This document shows positions 3,539 to 64,000 of a stretch of 64,000 nt of DNA, in pieces. Under the pieces are notes generated by a model that worked only from the letters and a program-made list of their open reading frames with translations, did no database searches and had not been told where the DNA came from. Numbering within the stretch: the first letter of the stretch is position 1; the number at the start of each line of letters is the position of its first letter. The translations under genes were made by a program, and so were the position numbers. Source of the DNA: an uncultured Chloroflexia bacterium (GTDB taxonomy: Bacteria; Chloroflexota; Limnocylindria; Limnocylindrales; CSP1-4); assembly GCA_963741085.1 (NCBI GenBank), contig CAVUGM010000006.1:565822-629821 (forward strand), in the 5' to 3' direction.

Positions 3539-4627
3539 ATGGGTATGGTCCAGGATGTCCGCATCGCGAAGCGGACTGGGTTCTGCTACGGCGTCCGCGA
3601 GGCCGTCGACAAGGCGAAGGAGGCCGCCGACGCCGGGAAGCTCACGCACACGCTCGGCCAGGTCGTCCACAACGAGGGCGTCATCGCCGGCTTGCAGGCG
3701 CGCGGCGTGGCGTCGATCGCGAGCCTCGACGAGGCCGAGGAAGGGTCGGCCGTCGTCATCCGGGCCCACGGCGTGACGCCGGGCGTACGCGAGGCGGCGT
3801 CGGTTCGAGGCCTCGACGTCATCGACGGCAGCTGCTCCTGGGTCATCGCGGAACAGCGCGAGCTCCAGAAGCTGGTCGAGGACGGCTACACCATCGTCCT
3901 CCTGGGGACGCCCAACCACCCGGAGGTCGTGGGCCTGCTCGGCTTTGCGCCCGACGCCATCGTCGTGGACGACGAGGAAGATTGGGACGCCATCCCGCAC
4001 CGGAAGCGGATGGCCCTCATCACCCAGTCGACGCAGCCGCCCTGGAAGTTCGAACGGCTTGCGGCGCGGATGGTCCGCCTGGCTCACGAGATCAAGATCG
4101 TCAACACGGTCTGCCCGGTGACGATCCGGCGCCAGGAGGACACCGTCGACATCGCCCGCGAGGTCGACTTCATGGTGGTCGTCGGCGGCCGCAGCAGCGC
4201 CAACACGCGGGAGCTCACGAGGCTCTGCGCGATCGTCGGGACGCCCGCGATGCAGGTGGAGCGTGCCAGCGATCTCCTCGATCCGGACGTCTTCGGACCG
4301 GCCCAGATCGTCGGGGTGACGGGTGGCACCTCCACGCCCATCGAGGACCTCGAGCTGGTCGCCGAGCGGATCCTCGAGGTGGCGGGCACGTCCGACTCCA
4401 GCGCCCGCGCAGCCGAGCTGGCCTACCGCGCTGTGCACGCGGCCGTGACGCCGGCGGGTCGCACCACGTCGCTCCCCGCGAGCCCGAACCGACCCGACCA
4501 GGTCGAGCATGTCGGGCGCCATGCGGCCGGGTCGACGGTGACACCCGCCCCGGCGCCGGCGGCCGGCACACACGCCGCGGCCGGCACCCGCGCCGCCGCG
4601 CCCGCCGCCGCGCCCGCATCCCGTTGA
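3539..4627 (+). CDS. ispH: 4-hydroxy-3-methylbut-2-enyl diphosphate reductase (IspH/LytB) with Ala/Pro-rich C-terminal tail
   Basis: [33 protein letters not shown]: the full set of LytB conserved blocks. At 362 aa it is about 40 aa longer than usual, with a low-complexity tail [14 protein letters not shown]. Confidence 0.85.
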
Positions 4628-6127
4628 GCGGGGCCGCCTCGCTCCCGCTCGTCGCCATCGTCGGCCGTCCGAACGTCGGCAAGAGCACGCTCTTCAACCG
4701 GATCGTCGGGGACAGCCGGGCGGCGATCGTCGAGGACCGGGCGCGGACGACGCGCGACCGCATCTACGGCGAGTCGGAGTGGAACGGGCGCCGCTTCCTC
4801 GTCGTGGACACCGGCGGCCTGGAGCTCGCACCGGGGGACGTGATCGAGGCCAAGGTCCAGGAGCAGGCCCGCCTCGCGATCGCCGAGGCCGACCTCATCG
4901 TGTTCGTCGTCGAGGCCACGGCCGGGCTCACCCCGGCCGACCAGGAGGCGGCGGAGACCCTGCGCCGCGCGACGGCGCCCGTGTTCGTGGCGGTCAACAA
5001 GGCCGACAACGCCAGGCGCGAGCTCGACGCGGCCGAGTTCTGGGAGCTTGGCTGGGACGAGACGTGGCCGATCAGCGCCTCCCACGGCAGGGGCGTCGCG
5101 GACCTCCTGGACGACATCGTCCTCGCGCTGCCGCCGGAGGGCGAGGCCGAGCTGGGGCGCAAGGCGCGCGAGGTCGCGACGGATCGCGGCGCCGACCTGA
5201 TCGGCGATGAGCTCGCGGAGGGGCTGGAGCCCGACGAGATCGGGGATGCGGAGGAGGATCTGCCCGGGCCCGTCACGATCGCGCTCGTCGGGCGGCCGAA
5301 CGTCGGGAAGTCGAGCCTTCTCAACGCGCTCCTCGGCGAGGAGCGGGCAATCGTCTCCGCGATCCCGGGGACGACGCGTGACGCCTTCGACACCCGCCTG
5401 CCGTTCGGGCAGGGCGAGATCGTCCTCGTCGACACGGCCGGGATCCGGCGCCGCGGCAAGGTGGCATCCGGACCCGCGGCGGAGCGGTACTCGACACTGC
5501 GAGCGCTCAAGGCGATCGACCGCGCGGACGTCACGGTGCTCGTCATCGACGCTGTCGAGGGCCTGACCGCGCAGGACGCCCACGTGGCGGGGTACACCAT
5601 CGATGCCGGGAAGGGCCTCGTCATCGCGGTCAACAAGTGGGACCTGGTCGAAGACAAGACGGACCGCACGTTCGACCAGTTCGTGGCCTGGATCCGCCGC
5701 GACGCGGCGTTCCTCGACTTACGCCCCGGTGGTCTCGATCAGCGCCAGGACGGGCCAGCGGGTGGATCGCGTGCTGGAGATGGCCGTGGACGTCTGGGGC
5801 GAGCGCCGCAAGCGAATCGGCACCGGCGAGCTCAACCGCCTCCTCGCCGAAGCGACGGCCCGGCAGGTCCCGCCGGCGGTCAAGAACCGCCGGCCGAAGC
5901 TCTTCTACGCAACGCAGGCGGGGATCGAGCCGCCGACGTTCATCTTCTTCGCCAACGACGCCGAGCTGATCCACTTCAGCTACCGTCGCTACCTCGAGAA
6001 CCGGATCCGCGACGTGCTCGGATTCCACGGCGCGCCGATCCGGCTCGTCTTCCGCAACCGGGGCGCCGAGCGCCCGCGCCGACGCAGCGGCGTCCGCCCC
6101 AAGGCCACCTCCACGCGCCGCAGCTGA
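4624..6127 (+). CDS. der: Ribosome-associated GTPase Der/EngA (two tandem GTPase domains plus KH-like C-terminus); frameshift near 5728
   Basis: Two G domains: [16 protein letters not shown]...DTGG and [16 protein letters not shown]...DTAG...NKWD. The C-terminal part [20 protein letters not shown]...RLVFRNRG is in the +1 frame; an extra T in 'gacttacgcc' shifts it. The TTG start at 4624 overlaps the ispH stop. Confidence 0.85.
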
Positions 6128-6199: not shown

Positions 6200-6276
6200 C
6201 GGGGTGTGGCGCAGCTTGGTAGCGCACCTGAATGGGGTTCAGGAGGTCCCGCGTTCGAATCGCGGCACCCCGACCA
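6200..6276 (+). tRNA. tRNA-Pro (anticodon GGG)
   Basis: Manual cloverleaf: acceptor CGGGGTG/CACCCCG; D-stem GCGC/GCGC; anticodon stem CCTGA/TCAGG; loop A-T-GGG-G-T; T-arm CCGCG-TTCGAAT-CGCGG; discriminator A; encoded CCA. Confidence 0.85.
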
Positions 6277-6288
6277 CTTCCTGAACGC

Positions 6289-6324
6289 GACGAAGGCCCT
6301 CCGTCTGACGCGGAGGGCCTTCTG
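6289..6324 (+). terminator. Perfect hairpin immediately after tRNA-Pro
   Basis: GAAGGCCCTCCG-tctgac-GCGGAGGGCCTTC, a 12-bp stem, followed by TGAATCGG (weak U tract). Confidence 0.4.
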
Positions 6325-6618
6325 AATCGGGCCGTAGCCGAACCGTACCCTGGCCAGCTTCCAGCGGATTGCGCCGTCCAGGTCGAGCGCGGCGTCCATC
6401 CGCTCCGTTGCGCGGCCTGGCATCTTGCGGGTGAGGCGCGCATCTCCTCGTCCGCCTCTGCCGGACCACAGCCTCAGCGCGTAGGCAGGAGGCGATTGAA
6501 GCGCGGAGCACGATGCGCCGATATGAGCCGCGTGCCATCTGGCTCTGTTGCAGGCGGTCCGTGGTGAGCCAACTTGTCCGCAAGCGTCCCATGAGGCACC
6601 GAATGGGAGGGTTGGTCC

Positions 6619-7330
6619 ATGCGACGCGCGAAGCTGGCGGCTGCGTTGGCAGCTGCCCTGGCGACCGGACTGGTCATCGGTGCGACGGCAGTGGCGGTCG
6701 GGCTGACGCCAGCCCCAGCAGTTCACGGGCTGCCTCGCCAAGGATGGGACCCTGCTGCGGGTCGCGATTGGATCGGTGCCGGCCCAGGCCTGCCGGCCCA
6801 ACGAGACCCAGATCGCCTGGAACTCCCAGGGTCCCAAGGGCGATCCGGGCAAGGCGGGCGGCGCCTCCGTCGTCGCCTACCCGTGGCCGCAGTCAAGCAC
6901 CTGGCTCACGTCCTACTGTGGGACTGAGTGGCTCACGCTCGGCGGACTCCCGGCTCCCGACTGCGGGTCGAACCCCGTGGTGATCCCCGCGCCCATAACG
7001 GGCATCGACGCGTATGCGGTCTTCCCGATCGACGCTGCGCAGTATCCGGCCGGGGCGAAGATCAGCCTCAGGTACCTGGTCACGAGGGCAGACCAGGGCA
7101 CGACCGCCTGCGTCCGGCTCTTCGATGCCGTGGGCCTCAAGACGATCGCGGGGTCCCAAACGTGCACCGGCGATCGCGGGTGGCACGCAACCCCGCCTGT
7201 ACCGATCGGATCCTTGACGCTGCTCACGGTCCAAGTGCAGCAGCCCGACGCAGCTTTCTCAACCGAGGACGGCTACTGGCCCGAGGCGCCCGTGCAGTAC
7301 GGGGGCAACTTCCTCGAGGTGAGCTGGTAG
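6619..7330 (+). CDS. Hypothetical secreted protein with a short collagen-like Gly-X-Y stretch; apparent frameshift near 6775
   Basis: Signal-peptide-like N-terminus MRRAKLAAALAAALATGLVIGATAVA. After a frame change the protein continues NSQGPKGDPGKAGGASVVAY...CGTEWLT...CGSNP...FLEVSW. No recognisable domain. Confidence 0.4.
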
Positions 7331-8555
7331 GCCCACCCGAATACGCGGCGCCCGCGACACCCTCACCCCGCCCCCGGCTCCGCATGGGACGCCCGCTCTT
7401 CGGATGAGCTCGTCGTGCCACGGTCGGAATGGCCGAAGAGCTTTGACACGACCGCGTGAGGCTGTCACGGCGACCGGGCGACCGGGCGACCGAGGCCGCG
7501 GCGCGCTCTGGGCGCTGGTGGCGCACCTGGAGGCACGCCATATGAGCGAAAGATAGGAGTCGGGCGTCATCCGACCCGCAATGCGCGGGCGCCGTGCCCG
7601 CAGGCTACGCGACCTCGCCCGTCCGGACGTCCCGAGGGCCAGCCCAACAAACGTTGCCGAAGCTGAGGCGGCAACGGCGACGAGCGCGAGCTTGCTCAAG
7701 AGAGGGCGTCCGGGGGTGGTCTTCGGTGGTGCCTTCTGTCACCGCATGAGCCCCATGCCCAAGTACGGCCCCGCGCCCAGGGCGTAGGCTACGAAACACG
7801 AGCGGGAGGCCCAGACACGCGGTCCATTCCCCGGCCGCCGGGACCGCGCCGAGCCACTGGCGAGACCGACCCGCGGGACCTGCGTCCCATCGATTGGGGA
7901 TGGTCTCTCCAGGTGGGCCGGCTCTTCTCCTTGCCCCCGACGGATGAAGACCCTCCATGGAGCAAGCGCTGCGCGCCCGAGCCTTACAATCCAGGCGCCA
8001 GTTGTGTTCGGGGGGCTGCACGCCGGCGGCGTTGAGCCGGGCGGCCCCGCCGGGTCGCCTGGCCCCGCCTGCAAGGTGGCGAGTGCCATGACCGAGGACC
8101 AGCGGTGGCGCACCTGGGCCTCCGCGCACGACGTAATGGCCACCATGCCCGGCTGGGCCGTCGGACCGTGCGTCTACCAGGGCGTCGACGGCGCTCGTCG
8201 CGGCACGCGACTACGTAGCCCGACCTATTGAGCGGTCCGCGGAAGGCAGAGAGAATCCCGCTTGGCCCCCGGCTCCGCGCGAGCGCGCACCGCTCCCCGC
8301 CCCCACGTGGGATTGGTCGCTGCACCGGGCGTCCGGGGGCCGCTGCATTCGAGCGATCCAGGCATTGACATGCCACAGTCCGTGCGGCAGGATCCGCGTT
8401 GCACTCATCGCTTTCTAGGCGGCCCTCGCGACACTCGGCCGCACGCTCTGGGGGGAGCGTGGACGGCGTGGTGTTCCCGAGGGCCGTTCGACGTGTCGAC
8501 CATTGAGCCGACCGGAGAGATGGGCTGCGCACCGGGCGTCAGGTGGCCGTTGGCC

Positions 8556-8834
8556 TCAGAAGTGTGCGAGCACGCGGTAGAAGTCGACGCTGTCCACCTG
8601 CATGAACCCGGGGCGGGGCGCGCTCCGTATCGGCTCCAGCGCCGCCCGTGCTGCTGCCTCGGTCTCGAACACCAACACGTTGAGCGTTCCGCCCGACCCG
8701 TCCGTCATCCAGAGCGCTGACACGATCCCGGGGGCGCGCCGCGTGCGCGGAAGCACGTTGGTCTGCAGGTCCTCCCCGGTTCCCTCGATGCGTTCGGGCT
8801 CTCCGGTCTCACGAACCACGACGGCGTACATAGA
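8556..8834 (-). CDS. Hypothetical small protein (~92 aa)
   Basis: MYAVVVRETGEPERIEGTGEDLQTNVLP...LNVLVFETEAAARAALEPIRSAPRPGFMQVDSVDFYRVLAHF. Composition is protein-like, unlike the R/P/S-rich alternative frames. The part of the ORF upstream of this Met looks like noise. Confidence 0.35.
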   Translation of the reverse strand, partial: SMYAVVVRETGEPERIEGTGEDLQTNVLPRTRRAPGIVSALWMTDGSGGTLNVLVFETEAAARAALEPIRSAPRPGFMQVDSVDFYRVLAHF

Positions 8835-9361
8835 CCCCCCTCCCGTGCTACGCCCACCCGGCAACGCTCCGGCGGCCCGATCATCGTAGCGCTGGTCCCC
8901 TCGCGGCTCCGCGCCGGGCGCTCCGCACTCCTTCGGGGACGGGAGGCGCATCGAGCATCCGGACCACGGTGCAGCCGAGTCTGCAACGCGGTGTCCCCTC
9001 CGGCCGGGCGCCAACCATGTCGGGCGGATCCCCGTCGAGAACTCCCGGAAGCTGCCCGCTGTGCGCACCGCCGCGACGGCCGGGCGCCGCTCTCATCCTC
9101 TCTTCATCGTCGATCGGCTATACGCCACACGAGGCGGGCCTGGGGTGCGCCTCACGGTCCCCGGCGTGGCCTTGAGCCCGGTCGCACTCCCACGAGGGTG
9201 GGATGGCCGGCGATCCCGGGCCGGTCGGGGGCCGTTTCATGCCCCGATCGGCGCGGCACTCAGTCGCTGGGGCGAACGCCTCTCATCGCCTATTCATGTA
9301 CGGTTGCCAGAATTCGTGCGGTCGAGCAGGTTCTGACACAGGTGGATCTGGCGAGCCGCAT

Positions 9362-9829: not shown

Positions 9830-10093
9830 TCAGGGAGCCAGGAGCTCTTCGAGCAGGTGCTCTGTCGGCGGGTGGACGGCGCAAACCTCGTCCTCGGCCG
9901 CGCGCTCGGCGGCGTCGCGGTCGAGGGCGTCACCCTCGCAGAGGACGTGTCCGGCCGGCGAGATCACTCGCCAGTGCCAGAGATGCGCGCCGTCTTCCAC
10001 GTGGACCTGCGCGTCGCGACCGTGAAGGTGCGCGGCGAACGCCATCCGGACGCCGTCGGGGCAGGGGATCGGGTGCCAGTTCGCGATGATCAT
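9830..10093 (-). CDS. Hypothetical small protein (~87 aa)
   Basis: MIIANWHPIPCPDGVRMAFAAHLHGRDAQVHVEDGAHLWHWRVISPAGHVLCEGDALDRD... His/Cys-rich. Convergent with the ORF at 9362..9635. Confidence 0.3.
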   Translation of the reverse strand: MIIANWHPIPCPDGVRMAFAAHLHGRDAQVHVEDGAHLWHWRVISPAGHVLCEGDALDRDAAERAAEDEVCAVHPPTEHLLEELLAP

Positions 10094-10215
10094 CGGTCGT
10101 CTCGGGCTCGCCTTGCGGATCGTCGCCATCGTCGTTCCCGTGAACGCCCTCCGCAAGTGCCGTCTCTCCCTCGTCGATGGCGTTCCGTCACGCGCCGCCG
10201 GATAGACTGCCCGGC

Positions 10216-11757
10216 ATGACCGACGAAGGCACCGGGATCCCCGCCGGCCGAGCGCATTCGGAGGCGCTCGACGCCCTCGACCCGGCCCAGCTCGAGGGTC
10301 TCCTCGACATGGACCCGGAGCGTTTCCGCGAGGCGGCCCACACGGTCGTGGACGCCATGGCGGACTACCTGGCGACGCTGGAGTCGCGCCGCGTCCTCCC
10401 CGCGATCGAGCCTGGATCGATCAGGCCGGCCTTCCCGGCCACGCCGCCGGAGGGGCCCGAGCCGCTGGGCGCGATCCTGGCAGACCTCGATCGGTTCGTC
10501 GTGCCCAACGCGACCCATTGGCAGCACCCGGGGTTCATGGCCTACTTCGCCACGACTGCGTCGGCCGCGGGCATCCTGGGCGAGATGTGGACCGCGGTCC
10601 TGGGGCAGAACCCGATGCTCTGGCGGACTTCGCCGATCGGGACGGAGCTCGAGGAGGTGGTCGTCGGCTGGCTGCGGGACGGCCTCGGCCTGCCGGGCTC
10701 GTTCGACGGCCTCCTCAACGACACCGCCTCCACCTCGACGCTCATCGCCCTGGCGGCCTCCCGCGAGACAGCGGGCTTGCGGGCAGCGGCCGACGGCGTG
10801 GCGCACCGGGACCGGGGGTCGCCGGTGGTCTACGCATCGGCCGAGGCCCACAGCAGCGTCGAGAAGGCATGCATGACCCTCGGCCTGGGCCGCGCGTCGC
10901 TCCGCAGGATCCCGGTCGACGACGCCTACCGGATGCGCGTCGACCTCCTGGAGCGCGCCGTCGCAGCAGATCGAGCAGCCGGCCGCGTGCCGGTCGCGAT
11001 CGTCGCGACGATCGGGACGACCTCGTCGACCTCGGTCGACCCGGTCGGCGCGATCGCCGACATCGCGGAGCGTGAGCGAACCTGGCTCCACGTCGATGCC
11101 GCGTACGCCGGATCGGCTGCACTGGTGCCGGAGAGGCGCGGACCGTTCGCCGGCTGGGAGCGCGCCGACTCGATCGTCGTGAACCCTCACAAATGGATGT
11201 TCACGCCGCTGGGCGCGTCGCTGCTCCTCACCCGGCGCATGGAGTCGCTGCGGGACGCCTTCAGCCTGGTGCCGGAGTACCTTCGGACACTCGACCAGGA
11301 GCGGCCCGTCCGCGACTTCAACGAATACCAGCCGCAGCTCGGCCGGCGGATGCGAGCGCTCAAGCTGTGGGTCCTGCTCCGCTACTTCGGCCTCGAGGGG
11401 CTGGGGCGGCGGATCGACGCCCACTGCCGGCTGGCGGCCGACCTTGCGGCCCGGGTGAACGCCGACGCCGACTTCGAGCTCCTGGCGCCGGCGCCGTTCT
11501 CGACGGTCTGCCTCCGCTGGCGACCGGCAAGCCTCGCGGGCAGGGAGGGCGACCCTGACGTGGCGACCCGCCTCGACGCCGCGAACGAGCGCCTGATGGC
11601 GGCCGTGAACGCCACCGGCGAGGTGTTCCTGTCGCACACGCGGTTGCACGACCGCTTCACCATCCGGGTGGCGATCGGCAACCTGCGAACCGAGGGCCGT
11701 CACGTGGAGCGCGCCTGGCACCTCCTGCGTCGGGAGGCCGCCCTTCTCGAGGCGTGA
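10216..11757 (+). CDS. PLP-dependent group II amino-acid decarboxylase (aromatic-L-amino-acid / tyrosine decarboxylase family)
   Basis: HWQHPGFMAYF; STSTLIAL; HVDAAYAGSA; NPHKWMFTPL (the PLP-lysine motif). 510+ aa. Confidence 0.85.
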   Translation: MTDEGTGIPAGRAHSEALDALDPAQLEGLLDMDPERFREAAHTVVDAMADYLATLESRRVLPAIEPGSIRPAFPATPPEGPEPLGAILADLDRFVVPNATHWQHPGFMAYFATTASAAGILGEMWTAVLGQNPMLWRTSPIGTELEEVVVGWLRDGLGLPGSFDGLLNDTASTSTLIALAASRETAGLRAAADGVAHRDRGSPVVYASAEAHSSVEKACMTLGLGRASLRRIPVDDAYRMRVDLLERAVAADRAAGRVPVAIVATIGTTSSTSVDPVGAIADIAERERTWLHVDAAYAGSAALVPERRGPFAGWERADSIVVNPHKWMFTPLGASLLLTRRMESLRDAFSLVPEYLRTLDQERPVRDFNEYQPQLGRRMRALKLWVLLRYFGLEGLGRRIDAHCRLAADLAARVNADADFELLAPAPFSTVCLRWRPASLAGREGDPDVATRLDAANERLMAAVNATGEVFLSHTRLHDRFTIRVAIGNLRTEGRHVERAWHLLRREAALLEA

Positions 11758-28560: not shown

Positions 28561-28995
28561 TCAGGCATTCGGCGGGGCCAGCAGGGGCCCAAGCGTCTCC
28601 ATTAGGTCCGGCGTGGTGATCGGGTCGTCTTCTGTGATCTTGCCGTTGGCAAGGCCGTAGTAGGTCAGGCCCCGGCCCGAGATCTTCTCCCCGTTGGCGA
28701 GGGTGTATTCGAAGGAGAAGCGGGCGACGACGGCATCCCCTTCGGCGATCAGGTCGGCGATCTTGAACTCACGAGCGGGTATGGCCGCAGCCATCGCAGC
28801 CAACGTCGCTTTGAAGCCCGCGACGTCCATGCCCCCCATCGCACGGTTCACGTAGTTCGGGGCAAACAGCTCGTCGATCACATCGACGTTGCCACCATCG
28901 AGTGTCTCGGTGATGAAGCGGCGGACGACGGCCTTGTTCTGCTCCGGAGACGCCACAGTGACCCCCTTCTGGGCGCAGGCGCGCCCATCCCGGAG
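28561..28995 (-). CDS. SnoaL-like / ester cyclase (NTF2-like superfamily)
   Basis: SPEQNKAVVRRFITETLDGGNVDVIDELFAPNYVN...FKATLAAMAAAIPAREFKIADLIAEGDAVVARFSFEYTL...GRGLTYYGLANGKITE. GTG start 7 nt after the AAGGGGG Shine-Dalgarno. Confidence 0.65.
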   Translation of the reverse strand, partial: LRDGRACAQKGVTVASPEQNKAVVRRFITETLDGGNVDVIDELFAPNYVNRAMGGMDVAGFKATLAAMAAAIPAREFKIADLIAEGDAVVARFSFEYTLANGEKISGRGLTYYGLANGKITEDDPITTPDLMETLGPLLAPPNA

Positions 28996-29112
28996 GGTCG
29001 GTCTCGCCATTGGCCCAGCGCGACGGTCGTGGCGACCGTATGAGGACGCCGCACTGGTTGGACCTCGCGGTCCGCTGCCACCCCCGGATCGGCGGAGTAT
29101 GCCACGGCCGTG
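28996..29112 (-). promoter_or_regulatory. Conserved structured 5'-UTR RNA motif (candidate riboswitch/cis-regulator), copy 1
   Basis: Sense (minus-strand) sequence: GGCAUACUCCGCC...GGGGG...hairpin GGACC-GCGA-GGUCC...CCAACCAGUGCGGCGUC...hairpin ACGGUCG-CCA-CGACCGU...GCUGGGCCAAUGGCGAGACCGACC, then a ~35-nt linker and the SD. It is about 90% identical to copy 2 and shares the 3' core with copies 3 and 4. Confidence 0.45.
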
Positions 29113-41456: not shown

Positions 41457-41716
41457 CTGCTGACCGCGAGACGAAGAGGCGATGATCGTCCGGGGGTGAT
41501 GGCCCGACCAGCACCGGGCACCCGCATGCCATTGCGTGGTGCCTGCCGGCACCACTTTGGACGGTTTGGGACGCACGGCCCTGTCGCTCATCTCGGGTCG
41601 GAGCGTAGAAGACACCTACGGCGGAAGGCGCTGACACACGGTCCACACTCTGGTCGCCGGGACCGTGTCGAGCCACTGGCGAACCCGACCCGCCCAAGGC
41701 GTCCCTGGGAGGATCG

Positions 41717-59641: not shown

Positions 59642-60666
59642 CCCGCCGGCCGCGGGTCGCGGTGATCTTCACCGGCGGGACGATCAGCATGACCGTGGAC
59701 ACCTCGGCCGGCGGAGTCGTGCCGACGCTGGCCGGGGCCGACCTGCTGGCCAGCGTACCCGGGCTCGCTGACCTCGCCGAGGTCACCCTGATCGACCTCG
59801 GACGGACGCCGGCCAGCCACTTCACCTTCGCCGACGTGCTGCGCATCCGGTCGCAGGTCGACGACGCCCTCGCCGACCCGGAGGTCCGCGGGGTCGTGGT
59901 CGTGCAGGGGACCGACACGCTCGAGGAGACGGCGTTCGCCTGGGACCTCTGCCACCGTGACGCCCGCCCGGTCGCCGTCACTGGCGCCATGCGGAACGCG
60001 AGCGAAGCGAGCTGGGACGGGCCGCGCAACCTGCGGGACGCGATCCGGGTCGCCGGGTCGCCCCGGGCTCGCGACGCCGGCGTCGTGGTCGTGCTGGGTG
60101 GGAAGGTCCACGCCGCGGACGCGGTTGCGAAGCGGCACGCGTCGGCGCTCGACGCCTTTGCCACCCGCGAGGGCCCGCCCCTGGGCGGAGTGGGGGAGCG
60201 CTCCCTCCGGTTGCGACCGCGCGGGCCCCGGCGGAGCCTCGCGATGACGCCGGCCGCAGCGGCGCTGCCCGTCTCGATCGTCATCGCCGCCCTGGACACG
60301 GACGGGAGCCAGGTCGACGCGGCTGTGCGTGACGGCGCTCGGGGCACCGTCGTCGCGGCCACCGGGTCAGGGAACACGCACCCCGACCTCCTGCGGGCGG
60401 CCATCGACGCGCGCAACGCCGGTGTGGCCGTGGCTCTCGCCTCGCGCACGGGCGCCGGATCCGTCGGCACGACATACGCCTTTCCAGGCGGCGGGGCGAC
60501 GTGGGCACGGGCCGGCATCCCGTTCGCCGGCGATCTCACGCCCGTGCAGGCGCGGGTTGCGCTGGCCCTCGGGCTGGGCGCGGGCCTGGTTGGCGACGCG
60601 TTGGCCGCCCTCCTCCTGGGCCCCGCCGCAGACCTGACGGACCGCTGGCCGCGGCCGATATCCTAG
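59638..60666 (+). CDS. L-asparaginase (type I / bacterial asparaginase family)
   Basis: VAVIFTGGTISM (Thr nucleophile motif); VVVVQGTDTLEETAFAW (TD motif); VLGGKVHAADAVAKRHASALDAF. Confidence 0.8.
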   Translation: MTRRPRVAVIFTGGTISMTVDTSAGGVVPTLAGADLLASVPGLADLAEVTLIDLGRTPASHFTFADVLRIRSQVDDALADPEVRGVVVVQGTDTLEETAFAWDLCHRDARPVAVTGAMRNASEASWDGPRNLRDAIRVAGSPRARDAGVVVVLGGKVHAADAVAKRHASALDAFATREGPPLGGVGERSLRLRPRGPRRSLAMTPAAAALPVSIVIAALDTDGSQVDAAVRDGARGTVVAATGSGNTHPDLLRAAIDARNAGVAVALASRTGAGSVGTTYAFPGGGATWARAGIPFAGDLTPVQARVALALGLGAGLVGDALAALLLGPAADLTDRWPRPIS

Positions 60667-60699
60667 GGTCAGAGCCATCACCGCCGGAGGAGCGACCGC

Positions 60700-61029
60700 A
60701 TGCCCGACGACGTCCGAACAAGGGAGCTGAACGGCCGGCTCGAGACGATCAGCTGGGGCCTCTTCCTGATCATGATCGGCGGCTTTGCGCTGCTGAAGGA
60801 CGTCCCTTCGGGCACCTGGCTGATCGGCGCCGGCATCATCATGCTCGGGCTCAACGTCGTTCGGCTCGCACTCGGAATCCGCGCCAGCTGGTTCACCCTG
60901 ATCCTGGGCGCGATCGCGCTCCTGTCGGGGATCGGCAGCGTCTACGGGATCGACATCCCGGTCGGACCGCTCCTCGTCATCCTCATCGGCCTGGCGATCA
61001 TCGTCCGGGCGCTGCAGCCCCGCTGGTAG
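60700..61029 (+). CDS. Hypothetical small membrane protein (109 aa, 3 TM)
   Basis: ISWGLFLIMIGGFALL...WLIGAGIIMLGLNVVRLALG...FTLILGAIALLSGIGSVYG...LLVILIGLAIIVRAL. Confidence 0.5.
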   Translation: MPDDVRTRELNGRLETISWGLFLIMIGGFALLKDVPSGTWLIGAGIIMLGLNVVRLALGIRASWFTLILGAIALLSGIGSVYGIDIPVGPLLVILIGLAIIVRALQPRW

Positions 61030-61166
61030 GGGCTGGCCGGCTGTCGCCTCCGTCTCGCCGGCGGCCACGCCGCCCGGTCCGTGCTCACCTGGGGTCCGTT
61101 CGTTGCCATGGATCCGCTGCCGGTTCGTCAGAACCGCGGTCTGCAGCCTGATGTCGGCCCACGTCA

Positions 61167-61238
61167 TCGCCGAGGCACGCCCCGGGACGCCCGGTGCCCG
61201 TCCATCCCGAAATGAAGCGAGCGCCGGGTGCGGAGCCG
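61167..61238. repeat. GC-rich palindromic repeat unit R-a
   Basis: CGCCCGGTGCCCGTCCATCCCG-AAATGAAGCGAG-CGCCGGGTGCGGAGCCG...GCCGGCC. Shares blocks CGCCCGGTGCG / GTCCCATCCCG / GCGGAGCC with five other copies at 61499-63589. Confidence 0.55.
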
Positions 61239-61498
61239 CGAGCCGGCCTACCCGAAAGGACGGGGAAAGGGGGGCCCTCTGGCCCTGTCCGGTGATCTGG
61301 GGATTGGTGGACGATCTCAGCAACGGGCCATCGAGGCCCCTGCAGATCGAGCCCCGGCACCGTCCCCCCCGGTTGCCGGGGTTCTCTGTATCTGCCAGGC
61401 CCTGACGCGCGGCGCGCGTCCCGCCGTCTAGCGGTGTTGGCCCGACCCTTCGTCTACGACTGACGCGAGCGGAAGGCGACCAGTCATCGCGAGGCAAT

Positions 61499-61579
61499 GG
61501 CCCCGGGCGCCCGGTGCGCCTCCCGTCCTGCCAATGAGCGGAGCGCCCGGTGCGGAGCCGATGGGCGGGAGGTCAGGCC
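61499..61579. repeat. GC-rich palindromic repeat unit R-b
   Basis: GGCCCCGGGCGCCCGGTGCGCCTCCCGTCCTGCCAATGAGCGGAGCGCCCGGTGCGGAGCCGATGGGCGGGAGGTCAGGCC. Flanked by a 'GGCC' terminal inverted repeat. Confidence 0.55.
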
Positions 61580-61630
61580 AGTCTTCACGACCGGAGCAGG
61601 TTGCGGCCCGCTCCGGTCGTGCTCTCGCCG

Positions 61631-62118
61631 CTACTGCGAGTTCTGGCCCCCGGTGGTGTAGATCGAGATGTTGCCCGACACGACCTCCCAGGCCGGGTTC
61701 ACGTTGTCGAGGAAGGTGTCCGCCGACCCACCGTCGGAGACCCGGTAATCGACGGGAAAGTCGAGGCAACCGCTCGGCGGGTTGATGATGCATTCCTCCA
61801 TGTGGAGCATGGCGCCCTGCGCCCCAGTCGGGGTCTTGAAGTAGTCGACGCTCTTCACGCTGTACTCGTGGATCTGGCCCACGTTCGGTTCGTCGACGCC
61901 GCCGGTGAGCCCATAGAGCTCCAGGTAGCCGAACTGCACCACACCCGACGTCGTCCGTACCTCGAATCGGGCGAGCCACTCCCGGCTGAGCGCGGGCTCG
62001 AAGACCTTAACGGTGCCATCCACATGCTTCGTGACGGGCGTCGTGCCGGCGCTGACGAACGGCACAGCGGCGAGGACGAAGAGCGCGATCGCTCCGACAG
62101 TGATGAGCCTCCGCATCG
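61631..62118 (-). CDS. Hypothetical secreted protein (~160 aa)
   Basis: Signal peptide MRRLITVGAIALFVLAAVPFVSA, then ...VQFGYLELYGLTGGVDEPNVGQIHEYSV...ECIINPPSGCLDFPVDYRVSDGGSADTFLDNVNPAWEV. Preceded by conserved RNA motif copy 4. Confidence 0.5.
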
Positions 62119-62200
62119 CGGAACCCTCCCTCGGGACGCATTCCTCGCGGGTCGGTCTCGCCAGTGGCTCGGCGCGGTCCCGGCGGCCGGGTTTGGACCG
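62119..62200 (-). promoter_or_regulatory. Conserved structured 5'-UTR RNA motif, copy 4 (3' core plus variant stem)
   Basis: Sense: CGCGGUCC-AAACCCGGCCGCCGGG-ACCGCG-CCGAGCCA-CUGGCGAGACCGACC-CGCGAGGAAUGCGUCCCGAGGGAGGGUUCCGCG-AUG. The 8-bp stem CGCGGUCC/GGACCGCG replaces ACGGUCG/CGACCGU of copy 1 (covariation). Confidence 0.4.
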
Positions 62201-62289
62201 CGTGTCAACGCTCCCCGTCATCAGTCACAGATGCGGCCAGGGGTCCAGGTGTCCCAGGTGCTCTATTCGGCATGGTGCCCGGAGGCAAC

Positions 62290-62368
62290 GGCCCCAGAGA
62301 CCGGGTGCGCGTCCCATCACGCCACTATCGAGGCTGAGCGGTGGATCCAGTTCGGAGCCCGGGGGCTG
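62290..62368. repeat. GC-rich palindromic repeat unit R-c (divergent)
   Basis: GGCCCCAGAGACCGGGTGCGCGTCCCATCACGCC...GGAGCCCGGGGGCTGACC. Confidence 0.45.
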
Positions 62369-62410
62369 ACCTCGATTGTGGTCCCCTGACCAGCCAGACC
62401 CAATGGGGGA

Positions 62411-62654
62411 CTACCTCGTTGCGCTCGCCCCCGGGAGCGCCGCCCATGCCCTGAGAGCGGCGATCTCGGTCGGTCCCCTCCCCGTGATCGCCCCGCACTT
62501 GGCGTACTGTTCCGACTGCCGCAGGTCGATCGCCGAGAGCTGCGAGCGCTCTCCGTCGCCGTGGTAGACGCACGGCCCCACCGGGCCAGCCCGCAAGGTT
62601 GCGACGGTATCGTGCACGGCGGCCCAGGCGCGTTCGCGGACGTCGTCGGTCATG
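62411..62654 (-). CDS. Hypothetical small protein (~80 aa)
   Basis: MTDDVRERAWAAVHDTVATLRAGPVGPCVYHGDGERSQLSAIDLRQSEQYAKCGAITGRGPTEIAALRAWAA. Protein-like composition, weak evidence. Confidence 0.3.
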
Positions 62655-62670
62655 ACGGCAGGCGTAGAGC

Positions 62671-62744
62671 GGCCCCCGGTCGCCGGGTGCGTCCCCGCCC
62701 CGTCCCGAAGGACGGGGCGGGCGTCCCGCGCGGAGCCGGGGGCC
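62671..62744. repeat. GC-rich palindromic repeat unit R-d
   Basis: GGCCCCCGG-TCGCCGGGTGCGTCCCCG-CCCCGTCC-CGAA-GGACGGGG-CGGGCGTCCCGCGCGGAGCC-GGGGGCC. Has a 9-bp terminal stem, a central 8-bp hairpin with a GAAG/UUCG loop and two flanking G3-4/C3-4 hairpins (cloverleaf-like). Confidence 0.55.
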
Positions 62745-62886
62745 TGCCAGCCGACGAGGGGCACCCGCCCCCCACTTCGGGGCCTGGCGCCGGCCTGCCT
62801 GCATCGTGAAAGGCGCAACGTGGCGCGCAAGGGTCAACCGGGCCCCGGCCAAGCAAGCTTGGTGCGTCAACGCACCGGAACGTCAC

Positions 62887-62940
62887 GGCCGCGGTCGCCC
62901 GGTGCGCGTCCCCATCCCGCAAACGGGGCGGAGCGCCGAC
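62887..62940. repeat. GC-rich palindromic repeat unit R-e (immediately 3' of the stop codon at 62942)
   Basis: GGCCGCGGTCGCCCGGTGCGCGTCCCCATCCCGCAAACGGGGCGGAGCGCCGAC. Confidence 0.5.
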
Positions 62941-62941
62941 G

Positions 62942-63402
62942 CTATCTGGTCGGTTCGGCGGCGAAGTGACCGCCGATATTGAGGACCGTGCTCGGGACGA
63001 AGAGCAACAGGTAGACGACCCAGGCGGCAGGCTCGATGTTCCACAGCGGCCACCACATGAACATCTGGGCCGAGAAGTAGAGCGCCAGGTACGGGCCAAG
63101 GACGTTCCACGCGATGGGCGGACGGCGCCACTGGCGCGGGCGCCACACGTCGACGATCGCCCCGAACAGAGCCCACGCAGCCACCAGGAGAGGGCCGACG
63201 AATAGCCTCCACGTCTGTCCGTCGAGGAACAGCCACGCTCCGAGCGGCAGTCCGAGCCCGCCGAAGGCGTACACGACCCAGCCGAAGCGCGCCGCCAGCT
63301 GCTGCGACCAACGACGCGCCGCGAAGTAGCCCAGGAGCAGCGTCTCCGTTGCCAACCCGAATGCGACGAAGGCAAGTTCCGCCCCGGTCACATGCTCTCC
63401 AC
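62942..63402 (-). CDS. Hypothetical integral membrane protein (~150 aa, 4 TM)
   Basis: GTG start. AELAFVAFGLATETLLLGYFAARRW...FGWVVYAFGGLGLPLGAWLFL...LFVGPLLVAAWALFGAIVDVW...NVLGPYLALYFSAQMFMWWPLWNIEPAAWVVYLLLF. Confidence 0.5.
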
Positions 63403-63523
63403 GCGATGAAGGTCGATCGGAAGGCCTCGGAACGCAAGAGGCGAACGACCCGCTGAACGAAAGGCGCCCGCCTTGCGAGGTGAGGGTCACGCCCGCCGGT
63501 CACCGGGCAGGCAACAGCACTCG

Positions 63524-63589
63524 CCGCACGAACGGCCCCCGGACGCCCGCGTGCTCGTCCCATCCTCCGAATGGCGGGCGCCCGGTGCG
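63524..63589. repeat. GC-rich palindromic repeat unit R-f
   Basis: GGCCCCCGGACGCCCGCGTGCTCGTCCCATCCTCCGAATGGCGGGCGCCCGGTGCGGAACCAGGCC. Confidence 0.55.
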
Positions 63590-63600
63590 GAACCAGGCCG

Positions 63601-63957
63601 TTAGATCAGGTCGACGATGGCCTCGTTCCAGGCGCCCATCCAGCGCACCATCCCCGCATCGACCACAGCAGTGACGACGCCGACGCCATTGAGGCAGGCG
63701 TCCGCCCGCATGGTCATACGCTGGAATTCCGGCGCCATGCTGAGGCGCCCCAGCTTCTCGGGATCGCCGCGCAGCAAGGCGAAGCCGCCAAGATCGCCCC
63801 CGTGGGAGTTCAGTTCCGCGAACTCGAAGCTCTCGATCTGGCCTGCCGTCTTGAGCCCGTTCCAGTAGGCGACGGCTTCCTCGAACACCTTGGCCGCGGC
63901 GAGTTCCTTGCCGGCGCGCTGCGAGCCCCAGCCGATGAACAATGCGTACTCGGCCAC
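63601..63957 (-). CDS. Hypothetical small cytoplasmic protein (118 aa), paralogue of 37820..38173
   Basis: (GTG)AEYALFIGWGSQRAGKELAAAKVFEEAVAYWNGLKTAGQIESFEFAELNSHGGDLGGFALLRGDPEKL..., sharing IGWG...IESFE...GGDLGGF..LRG..EKL with the 38-kb paralogue. Confidence 0.5.
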   Translation of the reverse strand: MAEYALFIGWGSQRAGKELAAAKVFEEAVAYWNGLKTAGQIESFEFAELNSHGGDLGGFALLRGDPEKLGRLSMAPEFQRMTMRADACLNGVGVVTAVVDAGMVRWMGAWNEAIVDLI

Positions 63958-64000
63958 AGCGAAATCCTCCCCGAACTCTGCTGCGGGTCGGTCTCGCCAG
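63958..64000 (-). promoter_or_regulatory. Conserved structured 5'-UTR RNA motif, copy 3 (truncated by window end)
   Basis: Sense: ...CUGGCGAGACCGACC-CGCAGCAGAGUUCGGGGAGGAUUUCGCU-GUG. The core is identical to copies 1, 2 and 4, followed by an SD-containing linker. Confidence 0.4.

Follow-up and report, generated by a model that had tools for sequence, protein, structure and literature searches.

The question raised by this locus is what role a GC-rich palindromic repeat plays between the small minus-strand genes near one end of a 64,000-nt stretch of an uncultured Chloroflexia genome (contig CAVUGM010000006.1; 71.5% G+C), referred to throughout as the window. A preliminary description, made from the sequence alone, reported six copies of this repeat in about 2.5 kb and offered a hedged reading of them as a family resembling REPs (repetitive extragenic palindromes) or MITEs (miniature inverted-repeat transposable elements), or as RNA elements for termination or stabilisation. 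The units are members of a real, previously uncatalogued family of hairpin-forming elements of approximately 78 nt that is present in many uncultured Chloroflexota. In the sense of the adjoining genes, the order is a stop codon, the hairpin, a predicted sigma-70-like promoter, often a riboswitch of the c-di-GMP-II-GAG class, and the next gene. The preliminary description overlooked a second cluster of units in the window, the abutting promoter, the coupling to the riboswitch and the restriction of the family to accessory-gene arrays.

Repeat units in the window

Reading of positions 60500–64000 together with repeat detection recovered all six units at or near the positions first given for them, with the sequence blocks they had been said to share, but the window total is ten because a second cluster lies on the minus strand. 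A profile hidden Markov model built from a MAFFT alignment of these six units and the four minus-strand units finds exactly ten copies in the window (E 1e-14 to 7e-5), with all other matches at E >0.9. The copies form two clusters only, the first at 61174–63603 with every unit on the plus strand and the second at 7368–8973 with every unit on the minus strand; they are clustered, not dispersed, and are absent from approximately 35 other gene ends in the window. A composite sequence pattern of the element gives 4 matches in the window and 0 in 100 shuffles, and a covariance model run with filters off gives nothing better than E = 0.02 outside the two clusters. The orientation that reads GGCCCCCGG-ACGCCCGGTGCG...GCGGAGCC-GGGGGCC is designated R+ and the opposite orientation, which is the gene sense, R-. 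The earlier exclusion of a CRISPR array stands, as the units are 214–2959 nt apart, the spacers contain genes and the repeats are 65–90% alike.

The units of the first cluster (all on the plus strand) differ in completeness. R-a (61174–61246; nhmmer E = 1.2e-10) sits between convergent genes and retains the inner arms with a degraded outer stem, giving a partial covariance-model match at 61185–61237 (E = 3e-4) and a folding z-score of -0.61. R-b (61492–61570; nhmmer E = 1.1e-14; covariance model 60.9 bits) is the best sequence match in the window, and its own fold is not better than that of shuffles (z = +0.91); it also lies between the convergent genes, just past a generic hairpin that follows the gene at 61631–62116. 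R-c (62283–62370; nhmmer E = 3.4e-11) is divergent, with an intact outer stem and a diverged inner 3' arm, and combines a strong sequence match with a weak structure match (19.2 bits, E = 0.043); in gene sense it comes after the gene at 62411–62653 and approximately 59 nt ahead of a riboswitch that begins at 62224. R-d (62665–62748; 34.1 bits; z = -6.05) is a complete and very stable hairpin of a CGGG/CCCG subclass located 12 nt upstream of the start of gene 62411–62653. R-e (62879–62954; nhmmer E = 2.5e-9; partial covariance-model match at 62897–62942) keeps the 5' two-thirds of the element, and R-f (63530–63603; nhmmer E = 3.7e-12; 39 bits; z = -1.84) starts, in gene sense, 2 nt past the stop codon of gene 63601–63957. 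The units had been placed immediately after stop codons (R-e and R-f) or between convergent genes (R-a and R-b); R-e overlaps the stop codon (62942–62944) of gene 62942–63391 with its gene-proximal arm.

The second cluster contains two longer units, R-g (8260–8349, minus strand; nhmmer E = 2.8e-9; 38.6 bits; z = -1.56), a complete hairpin downstream of the small gene at 8088–8231(+), and R-i (8896–8973, minus strand; nhmmer E = 6.9e-12; 45.7 bits). The remaining two are half elements on the same strand: R-h (8492–8555; nhmmer E = 1.4e-7, profile positions 3–66) has the 5' arm only, and R-j (7368–7423; nhmmer E = 6.8e-5, profile positions 22–79) has the 3' arm only and lies 38 nt past the stop codon of gene 6776–7330(+). 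Most window copies are degraded, and folding is better than that of dinucleotide shuffles only for R-d, R-f and R-g, with z-scores near 0 for units a, b, c, e, h, i and j. Small open reading frames (ORFs) inside the units were discarded as candidate genes, as the ATG of R-b is not conserved in other copies and the reading frames of the flanks contain stops.

Distribution of the family

Matches to the composite pattern among species-representative genomes came from 66 loci, which are labelled L0xx where a single one has to be named. The profile supports 50 of them, with 83 copies altogether, and, apart from a single bin that carries the label Acidimicrobiia, all 50 derive from Chloroflexota metagenome-assembled genomes (MAGs; "uncultured Chloroflexia", Candidatus Limnocylindrales). 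The other 16, Streptomyces-type or other non-Chloroflexota pattern matches without profile support, are attributed to chance. The element is found in 117 of 120 metagenome contigs among the matches listed, a scope that applies to all metagenome and pooled counts below, with at least 219 copies and at least 82 riboswitches in 424 kb. The 50 Chloroflexota loci and 117 contigs bear out a dispersed family as opposed to a local duplication. The pooled set of window, genome loci and metagenome contigs comprises at least 312 hairpins and at least 136 riboswitches in approximately 0.85 Mb. A covariance model, R1, built from a gap-free seed alignment with a hand-set structure, finds 92 copies in the genome loci and window and at least 171 copies in 100 metagenome contigs.

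Stretches that are 75–88% identical are common to the window and several of the Chloroflexota MAGs, which places the window in a Limnocylindria-like Chloroflexota genome. Typical hairpins and riboswitches are also present in L030, from the MAG labelled Acidimicrobiia, and in L020, from a MAG labelled Anaerolineaceae, which means either that these MAGs were wrongly binned or labelled or that the host range is somewhat broader. Collections of plasmid and phage sequences contain nothing similar to the hairpin element. The units match no family in Rfam 15, at the gathering threshold or at E up to 10, and no description of the hairpin element was found in the literature.

Predicted fold and its conservation

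Single-sequence folding predicts one long imperfect hairpin of approximately 78 nt on either strand. The outer stem, (AC)GGCCCCCGG/CCGGGGGCC(GU), is followed by an internal loop with A opposite GAG, and above this loop the inner helices are, from the base upward, CGC/GCG, CCGG/CCGG, GCGC/GCGC and UCC/GGA. The first of these is followed by a bulged U on the 3' arm, the second by a bulged U on the 5' arm and the third by a bulged G. Above UCC/GGA, an internal loop with CAUC opposite AGC leads into an apical stem-loop that is variable in sequence and length, the apex measuring from approximately 10 to more than 45 nt across the family. Intact copies have folding energies of -50 to -80 kcal/mol.

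This fold replaces two details of the preliminary description. The cloverleaf-like structure proposed for R-d is rejected on energy, the minimum-energy fold being the long bulged hairpin at -66.9 kcal/mol (-69.9 kcal/mol in the shuffle comparison) versus -55.1 kcal/mol for the best fold with at least three hairpins and -18.5 kcal/mol for the cloverleaf as transcribed. The internal direct repeat reported as CGCCCGGTGCG is an 11-mer that does occur in both arms, but the arms are inverted and pair in a staggered register; it appears as a direct repeat because the 11-mer is nearly its own reverse complement and is present on each side.

Pairing is conserved across the family. Base-paired cells make up 86.2% of the alignment of genome loci and window and 88.3% of the metagenome alignment versus 33–60% when the partners are slid by 1–3 columns, figures to be read with the caution that the alignments were fitted to the covariance model and so favour its own structure. 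The observed pairing was reached by 0 of 500 shuffles, except on one measure, where it was reached by 1 of 500. The apical helix covaries in the first set (CG 39/UA 20/UG 10 and GC 31/CG 30) and again in the second, metagenome set (UA 73/CG 26 and CG 81/GC 27), and these changes, together with pairing far above that of the slid controls, establish that the units are structurally conserved. The inner helices are 88–98% paired and almost invariant in sequence, with a compensatory change from CCGG/CCGG to CGGG/CCCG in the subclass that contains R-d. The outer stem, GGCCCCCGG/CCGGGGGCC, which forms a terminal inverted repeat, has approximately 78% of its cells paired, and its promoter-proximal arm is better conserved than the other arm. 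The unpaired bases of the bulges and loops are conserved in at least 90% of copies.

Thermodynamic z-scores are modest (median -1.1 to -1.9, with 33–47% of copies below -2) because shuffled sequence of 78% G+C also folds well. RNAalifold predicted no structure from the plain MAFFT alignment, in which the variable apex misaligns, and it was replaced by the hand-set structure and the covariance model.

Neither strand is clearly preferred. A selected RNA helix normally shows a bias in wobble pairs, and none is seen here: in the first set, G-U plus U-G pairs, which form in R+ only, number 87 versus 101 for A-C plus C-A, which form in R- only, and the corresponding counts for the inner helices are 36 versus 38 in the first set and 38 versus 30 in the second. 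A-C combinations are in excess in the outer stem, to approximately the extent predicted from how much G and C the less conserved arm contains. Folding energies and z-scores are the same on both strands across the family, with R+ folding slightly better than R- in 8 of 9 examples. The unit may act as RNA, as single-stranded DNA or as a cruciform. Members of the family can also be mis-annotated by tRNA finders, as at L050 6245–6339, where ARAGORN calls a 95-nt "tRNA-Thr" that is really a hairpin unit (covariance-model match at 6262–6338).

Position and orientation in gene arrays

The hairpins are arranged at approximately one per gene, with a median hairpin-to-hairpin spacing of 846 nt (interquartile range 607–1254) in the pooled set. 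Their orientation is mixed in only 2 of 79 multi-copy loci (among the matches listed), one of which is the whole window, where each cluster is uniform. With genes called crudely from third-position G+C content, 62 of 81 neighbours on the 3' side of R+ and 58 of 86 on the 5' side lie on the opposite strand. In gene sense, the hairpin starts -21 to +51 nt from the stop codon, with a median of approximately 14 nt. Elements reduced to one half keep the promoter-proximal arm in 33 instances and the other arm in 9.

The genes that precede hairpins are diverse, with 34 of them falling into 27 clusters that include lipoproteins, a methyltransferase, a hydrolase, beta-propeller proteins and membrane proteins. 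The 846 proteins predicted in all loci form 594 clusters, 487 of them singletons, and most have no Pfam family; the largest clusters are membrane, Kelch, SRPBCC or esterase proteins or have no Pfam match, and no recurrent recombinase cluster occurs among the 594. Genes for tRNAs are enriched approximately fourfold near the arrays (21 in approximately 360 kb), often within 100–600 nt, examples being the window gene at 6200–6273(+) and those in L004, L020, L026, L029, L033, L044, L050, L065 and others. In L016, an Xer-like tyrosine recombinase (4084–5007) is encoded between a tRNA-Arg gene and two hairpin-flanked genes.

Coupling to a predicted promoter and a riboswitch

The 5'-UTR (untranslated region) motif of which two copies had been noticed near the repeats is the Rfam family c-di-GMP-II-GAG (RF03169). 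The aptamer at 62141–62224 (minus strand; 70.2 bits against a gathering threshold of 40, E = 5e-12) forms the leader of gene 61631–62116, and the 3' end of another, cut by the window edge at 63977–64000 (minus strand; Rfam model positions 63–86), leads gene 63601–63957; 18 nt of the latter are identical to 62147–62164. The second cluster contains a further aptamer at 7796–7880 (plus strand; RF03169, 67.2 bits). Away from the hairpin clusters, the window carries an RF03169 aptamer at 28986–29091 (minus strand) and a c-di-GMP-II-GCG aptamer (RF03170) at 41615–41699 (plus strand). The lineage makes very heavy use of c-di-GMP-II-GAG, for the most part upstream of small genes whose products are secreted, membrane-bound or unannotatable. 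To our knowledge c-di-GMP-II-GAG is an orphan riboswitch for which no ligand has been identified.

The gene-sense flank that follows the hairpin is conserved and consists of GTTCGCCTCTCGCCAG, approximately 17 nt, TACGGT (or CATCCT, CACGAT or TAGGGT), a further 5–8 nt and then the first base of the aptamer. Its motifs and spacing suggest a sigma-70-type promoter with a -35 box of TCGCCA or TCGACG and a -10 box of TAnnnT, the predicted -35 box starting approximately 9 nt past the hairpin base. In the window, the spacer between R-c and the riboswitch (62225–62282, minus strand) begins in gene sense with GTTGCCTCCGGGCACCATGCCGAATAGAGC, aligns to the family flank GTTCGCCTCTCGCCAG-N17-TAnnnT and holds the putative promoter. 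A -35-like box, a spacer of 17–22 nt and YAnnnT are present on the downstream side, in gene sense, of 83 of 270 hairpins (31%) versus 6 of 270 on the other side. A riboswitch lies 15–71 nt from 76 of 312 hairpins (24% among the matches listed), with a mode of 32–33 nt, and conversely 56% of the riboswitches in the pooled set have a hairpin upstream. In the pooled set, the R+ strand carries no riboswitch within 120 nt, and a single riboswitch lies on the wrong side. A second variant of the predicted promoter (GTCCGCCTCTCGACGG...CATCCT) runs directly into a Shine-Dalgarno sequence with no riboswitch between.

One version of the -35-like box, UCUCGCCAG (for example L036 5082–5120 and L026 4338–4376), is the exact reverse complement of the 3' pseudoknot strand of the riboswitch, CUGGCGAGA (for example window 62147–62164). 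A read-through transcript would thus carry a segment able to pair with the aptamer. The match may be due to chance, since variant boxes do not have this complementarity.

Conservation and possible exchange of array content

Comparison of related loci suggests that the hairpin copies are under purifying selection. Orthologous copies are retained in L036 and L059 and in L014 and L047, and those of L036 and L059 are approximately 88% identical versus 78% for the adjacent gene DNA. The gene content around the hairpins varies. L036 and L053 have the hairpin, promoter, riboswitch and gene in common at 90% identity with different upstream genes, and in L036 and L059 the similarity covers the upstream gene and the hairpin, with different sequence downstream. 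Three genomes have a conserved anchor made up of a PLP (pyridoxal phosphate)-dependent decarboxylase gene and a small divergent gene (window 9830–11757, L013 1–1398, L044 1668–3595), and the hairpin and riboswitch array that adjoins this anchor differs in content, with the order of its blocks rearranged. A 0.8-kb duplication in one MAG starts inside the promoter-proximal hairpin arm and ends exactly at the 3' end of the riboswitch aptamer, beyond which the genes differ.

The interior ends of blocks with at least 90% identity fall within -60 to +140 nt of a hairpin in 73 of 145 cases, and they are scattered over both hairpin bases and the apex and not confined to one nucleotide. This pattern fits homologous exchange at conserved elements, although breakpoints at hairpins are partly expected because intergenic DNA diverges fastest.

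Predicted function of the element

The favoured reading, held tentatively and at a little under an even chance, is that of a REP/BIME (bacterial interspersed mosaic element)-like boundary element of accessory-gene arrays that terminates or insulates the upstream transcript and is recognised by a protein. The hairpin would mark the joint between consecutive, separately promoted transcription units in small accessory-gene arrays and would end or insulate the upstream transcript by termination and/or 3'-end protection. Each downstream gene would then be read only from its own promoter and riboswitch, the riboswitch beginning at the predicted transcription start. The hairpin might in addition serve as a portable patch of homology for the exchange of gene modules. 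The near-invariance of the arms and bulges from species to species makes recognition by a protein probable. The element shares with intrinsic terminators a G+C-rich hairpin just after the stop codon, at the median distance given above. U-tract terminators are essentially absent from this region of the genome (2 found versus 3.9 expected from shuffles), which makes 3' ends formed by a hairpin only plausible here.

By analogy, the units appear to be lineage-specific structured intergenic palindromes of the same general kind as REP dimers, BIMEs, ERIC (enterobacterial repetitive intergenic consensus) and Correia elements. The Correia elements of Neisseria (also called NEMIS) and the ERIC elements of enterobacteria are hairpin-forming intergenic repeats of approximately 100–150 nt that are co-transcribed and can terminate or process transcripts, and Correia elements have promoters that face outward at one end. 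Both belong to the MITEs, have target duplications (TA in the case of Correia) and are richer in A+T. In contrast, the present element has no such duplication, its predicted promoter is just outside the palindrome, and the link to a riboswitch class is new. Mycobacterium tuberculosis, with its TRIT motif, provides a precedent for a terminator-like hairpin that is a conserved repeat in a high-G+C genome. The present hairpin resembles TRIT and other Rho-independent terminators in being stable, G+C-rich and immediately after stop codons; unlike Rho-independent terminators, it lacks a U-tract, has conserved bulges and an internal loop, and is absent from the ends of housekeeping genes.

Several observations weigh against a boundary element of this kind. 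No U-tract follows the hairpin on either strand, the gene-sense 3' flank being GUUCGCC, GCUC or GUCC, and a consensus terminator scan found no member of the family; a classical intrinsic (Rho-independent) terminator was rejected for want of the U-tract. The restricted distribution, with no copy at approximately 35 other gene ends of the window, indicates that this is not the general terminator of the organism. A generic 15-bp hairpin already stands between gene 61631–62116 and R-b. In L029 and L044, the unit of hairpin, promoter and riboswitch diverges from a tRNA gene approximately 100 nt away, leaving no upstream ORF to terminate. The preference of half elements for the promoter-proximal arm (33 versus 9), which is also the better conserved one, suggests a tie to the promoter and not to the upstream gene. 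Stability is modest, with the median z of -1.1 to -1.9 and most window copies near 0, and the lack of a G-U versus A-C bias leaves room for action at the DNA level.

Some of the same observations favour a promoter-upstream regulatory DNA element, such as an operator, an activator site or an extruded cruciform that controls a regulon of accessory genes, which we consider unlikely. The spacing from the hairpin base to the -35 box and riboswitch is fixed, with the mode of 32–33 nt, the promoter-proximal arm is the better conserved and the one mostly kept by half elements (33 versus 9), the units of L029 and L044 have no upstream ORF, and the family is confined to riboswitch-rich arrays. A nearly invariant sequence that includes the bulges, with no wobble bias, would also suit a regulatory site. 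On the other hand, approximately 60–70% of hairpins have no recognisable promoter on the downstream side and some, such as R-a and R-b, sit between convergent genes. The inter-arm distance is approximately 28–60 nt as a result of the variable apex, which fits poorly with co-operative binding to double-stranded DNA, and the covariation of the apical helix points to a folded single strand.

A selfish palindrome of the REPIN or MITE type, spread by a RAYT (REP-associated tyrosine transposase) or another transposase and with no host function of its own, appears improbable. REPs are short imperfect extragenic palindromes with an unpaired GTAG or CGTC tag at one end (PMC3733652), and REP dimers, BIMEs and REPINs (Di Nocera et al. 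2013, PMC3733652) resemble the present family in that they are extragenic imperfect palindromes with many copies per genome, located mostly downstream of coding regions between co-directional or convergent genes, in which two inverted halves form a single large stem-loop and for which roles in termination and mRNA stabilisation have been proposed. The inverted arms of the hairpin, each with its near-palindromic 11-mer, the terminal inverted repeat GGCCCCCGG/CCGGGGGCC, the high copy number with degraded and half copies, and the location in variable regions, often beside tRNA genes, would all be in keeping with such an origin. Unlike REPs, however, the element has stems of pure G+C, its consensus, (A)ACGGCCCCCGG...CCGGGGGCCGU, has no unpaired tag of either type, with CGTC only inside the stem, and its sequence is conserved across many species of a class. 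It also differs in occurring in accessory-gene arrays at approximately one copy per gene, with its orientation locked to transcription and to the promoter, which abuts one side of the element often together with a riboswitch, and not as dispersed copies. RAYT genes are usually single-copy, and a scan for HUH plus Y..NP motifs in approximately 0.85 Mb of flanking DNA, comprising all loci and the window, found no such motif. The MITE part of the earlier suggestion is likewise not sustained; terminal inverted repeats are present, but no target-site duplications are visible flanking the units, and different species keep orthologous copies, which are better conserved than the genes beside them. In other respects the earlier reading, of a REP-like intergenic family or RNA elements for termination or stabilisation, was in the right direction.

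The arrays also resemble integron cassette arrays, and the hairpin could be an attC-like folded-DNA recombination site, with a gene and its hairpin exchanged as a cassette by a recombinase; this we regard as very unlikely. Like attC (Cury et al. 2016, PMC4889954), the element is a bulged hairpin of 60–100 nt with conserved extrahelical bases and a variable terminal structure, occurring once per small and mostly unannotatable gene in co-oriented arrays whose content varies between relatives. The units are cassette-sized (median 846 nt), the array content at the syntenic PLP-decarboxylase site differs with blocks rearranged, the homology breakpoints cluster at hairpins, and integrons have been reported in Chloroflexi (PMC4889954). 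The element has, however, no unpaired central spacer in an R/L layout, and the AAC...GTT triplet pair of the R boxes (PMC4889954) is found in only 1 of 91 genome-set and 1 of 143 metagenome copies. AAC is at the 5' base of the hairpin in 35% of the genome set and 24% of the metagenome set, and GTT at the 3' base in 6 of 143 metagenome copies (4%); in the genome set, GTT does not rank among the eight most frequent triplets there. Motif scans of approximately 170 loci turned up just four tyrosine recombinases, all generic and none of them in the 64-kb window, and no integron integrase; the one recombinase tested, that of L016, scores 49.7 bits versus a cut-off of 265 for the integron-integrase model TIGR02249. 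The arrays may still be of the CALIN type (clusters of attC sites lacking integron-integrases), far from any IntI. Further points that do not suit an integron are the many separate arrays per genome (two in the window and at least five contigs in one MAG), the promoters that many units have at a fixed distance, and breakpoints that do not coincide at a single nucleotide but fall variously at the base, the apex or the far base, with one at the riboswitch end. There is correspondingly little chance of a new Limnocylindria gene-cassette system without IntI, in which cassettes would bring their own promoter and often a riboswitch and would be shuffled among many arrays by some recombinase or by hairpin-guided recombination.

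Finally, the R+ strand, which is antisense to the flanking genes, is most improbable as a functional small RNA or as a cis-antisense element directed at the 3' end of the preceding gene; the slightly better folding of R+ in 8 of 9 examples and its location in L029 and L044, approximately 100 nt ahead of a tRNA gene that reads in the same sense, are outweighed by the equal family-wide z-scores of the two strands, the lack of wobble-pair bias, the lack of any promoter motif reading into R+ (the sole conserved motif reads the opposite way) and the lack of an Rfam match.

Neighbouring genes and other features of the window

The genes within both clusters are small and have no Pfam family, and R+ in the first cluster is antisense to all four of its genes. 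The gene at 61631–62116 (minus strand) encodes a 161-aa protein with a signal-peptide-like N-terminus and is preceded by the riboswitch at 62141–62224. The 80-aa product (MTDDVRERAW...) of gene 62411–62653 (minus strand) is encoded between R-d and R-c, and the 149-aa hydrophobic product of gene 62942–63391 (minus strand), which is probably a membrane protein, between R-f and R-e. The last gene, 63601–63957 (minus strand; 118 aa), is also controlled by a riboswitch and is followed by R-f. The first cluster adjoins genes for an MFS (major facilitator superfamily) transporter and an asparaginase, and the second is flanked by ispH, der and a tRNA gene on one side and the PLP-decarboxylase gene on the other. 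Each cluster has one of a pair of small paralogous genes, 62411–62653(-) (MTDDVRERAWAAVHD...GPCVYHGDG) and 8088–8231(+) (MTEDQRWRTWASAHD...GPCVYQGVDG).

The generic hairpin at 61586–61621 (minus strand), directly after the stop codon of gene 61631–62116, is a GC-rich inverted repeat of 15 bp with 93% complementarity and a 6-nt loop; not a member of the repeat family, it resembles an ordinary terminator hairpin that lacks a U-tract. Between R-a and R-b, positions 61367–61381(+) hold the sole plus-strand terminator-like hairpin with a T-run in 44–64 kb (CCCCGGTTGCCGGGG TTCTCTGTAT). An 18-nt inverted match with 94% complementarity joins 60699–60716(+) and 62637–62654(-) and spans the initial codons of two genes that are otherwise different (MPDDVRTRE... 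and MTDDVRERA...).

Significance

If the favoured boundary-element reading is true, an abundant uncultured lineage of soil and freshwater builds its accessory-gene arrays from standard parts, namely the hairpin, a promoter and often a riboswitch. The finding raises the question of how transcription units end in a genome of 71% G+C without U-tract terminators, and the near-invariant bulges imply a protein partner. Should the hairpin be a recombination site, which is less likely, it would represent a second, integron-like way of assembling gene cassettes. The covariance model R1 finds these arrays along with more than 100 new riboswitch instances and their regulon, which should help in identifying the ligand of c-di-GMP-II-GAG.

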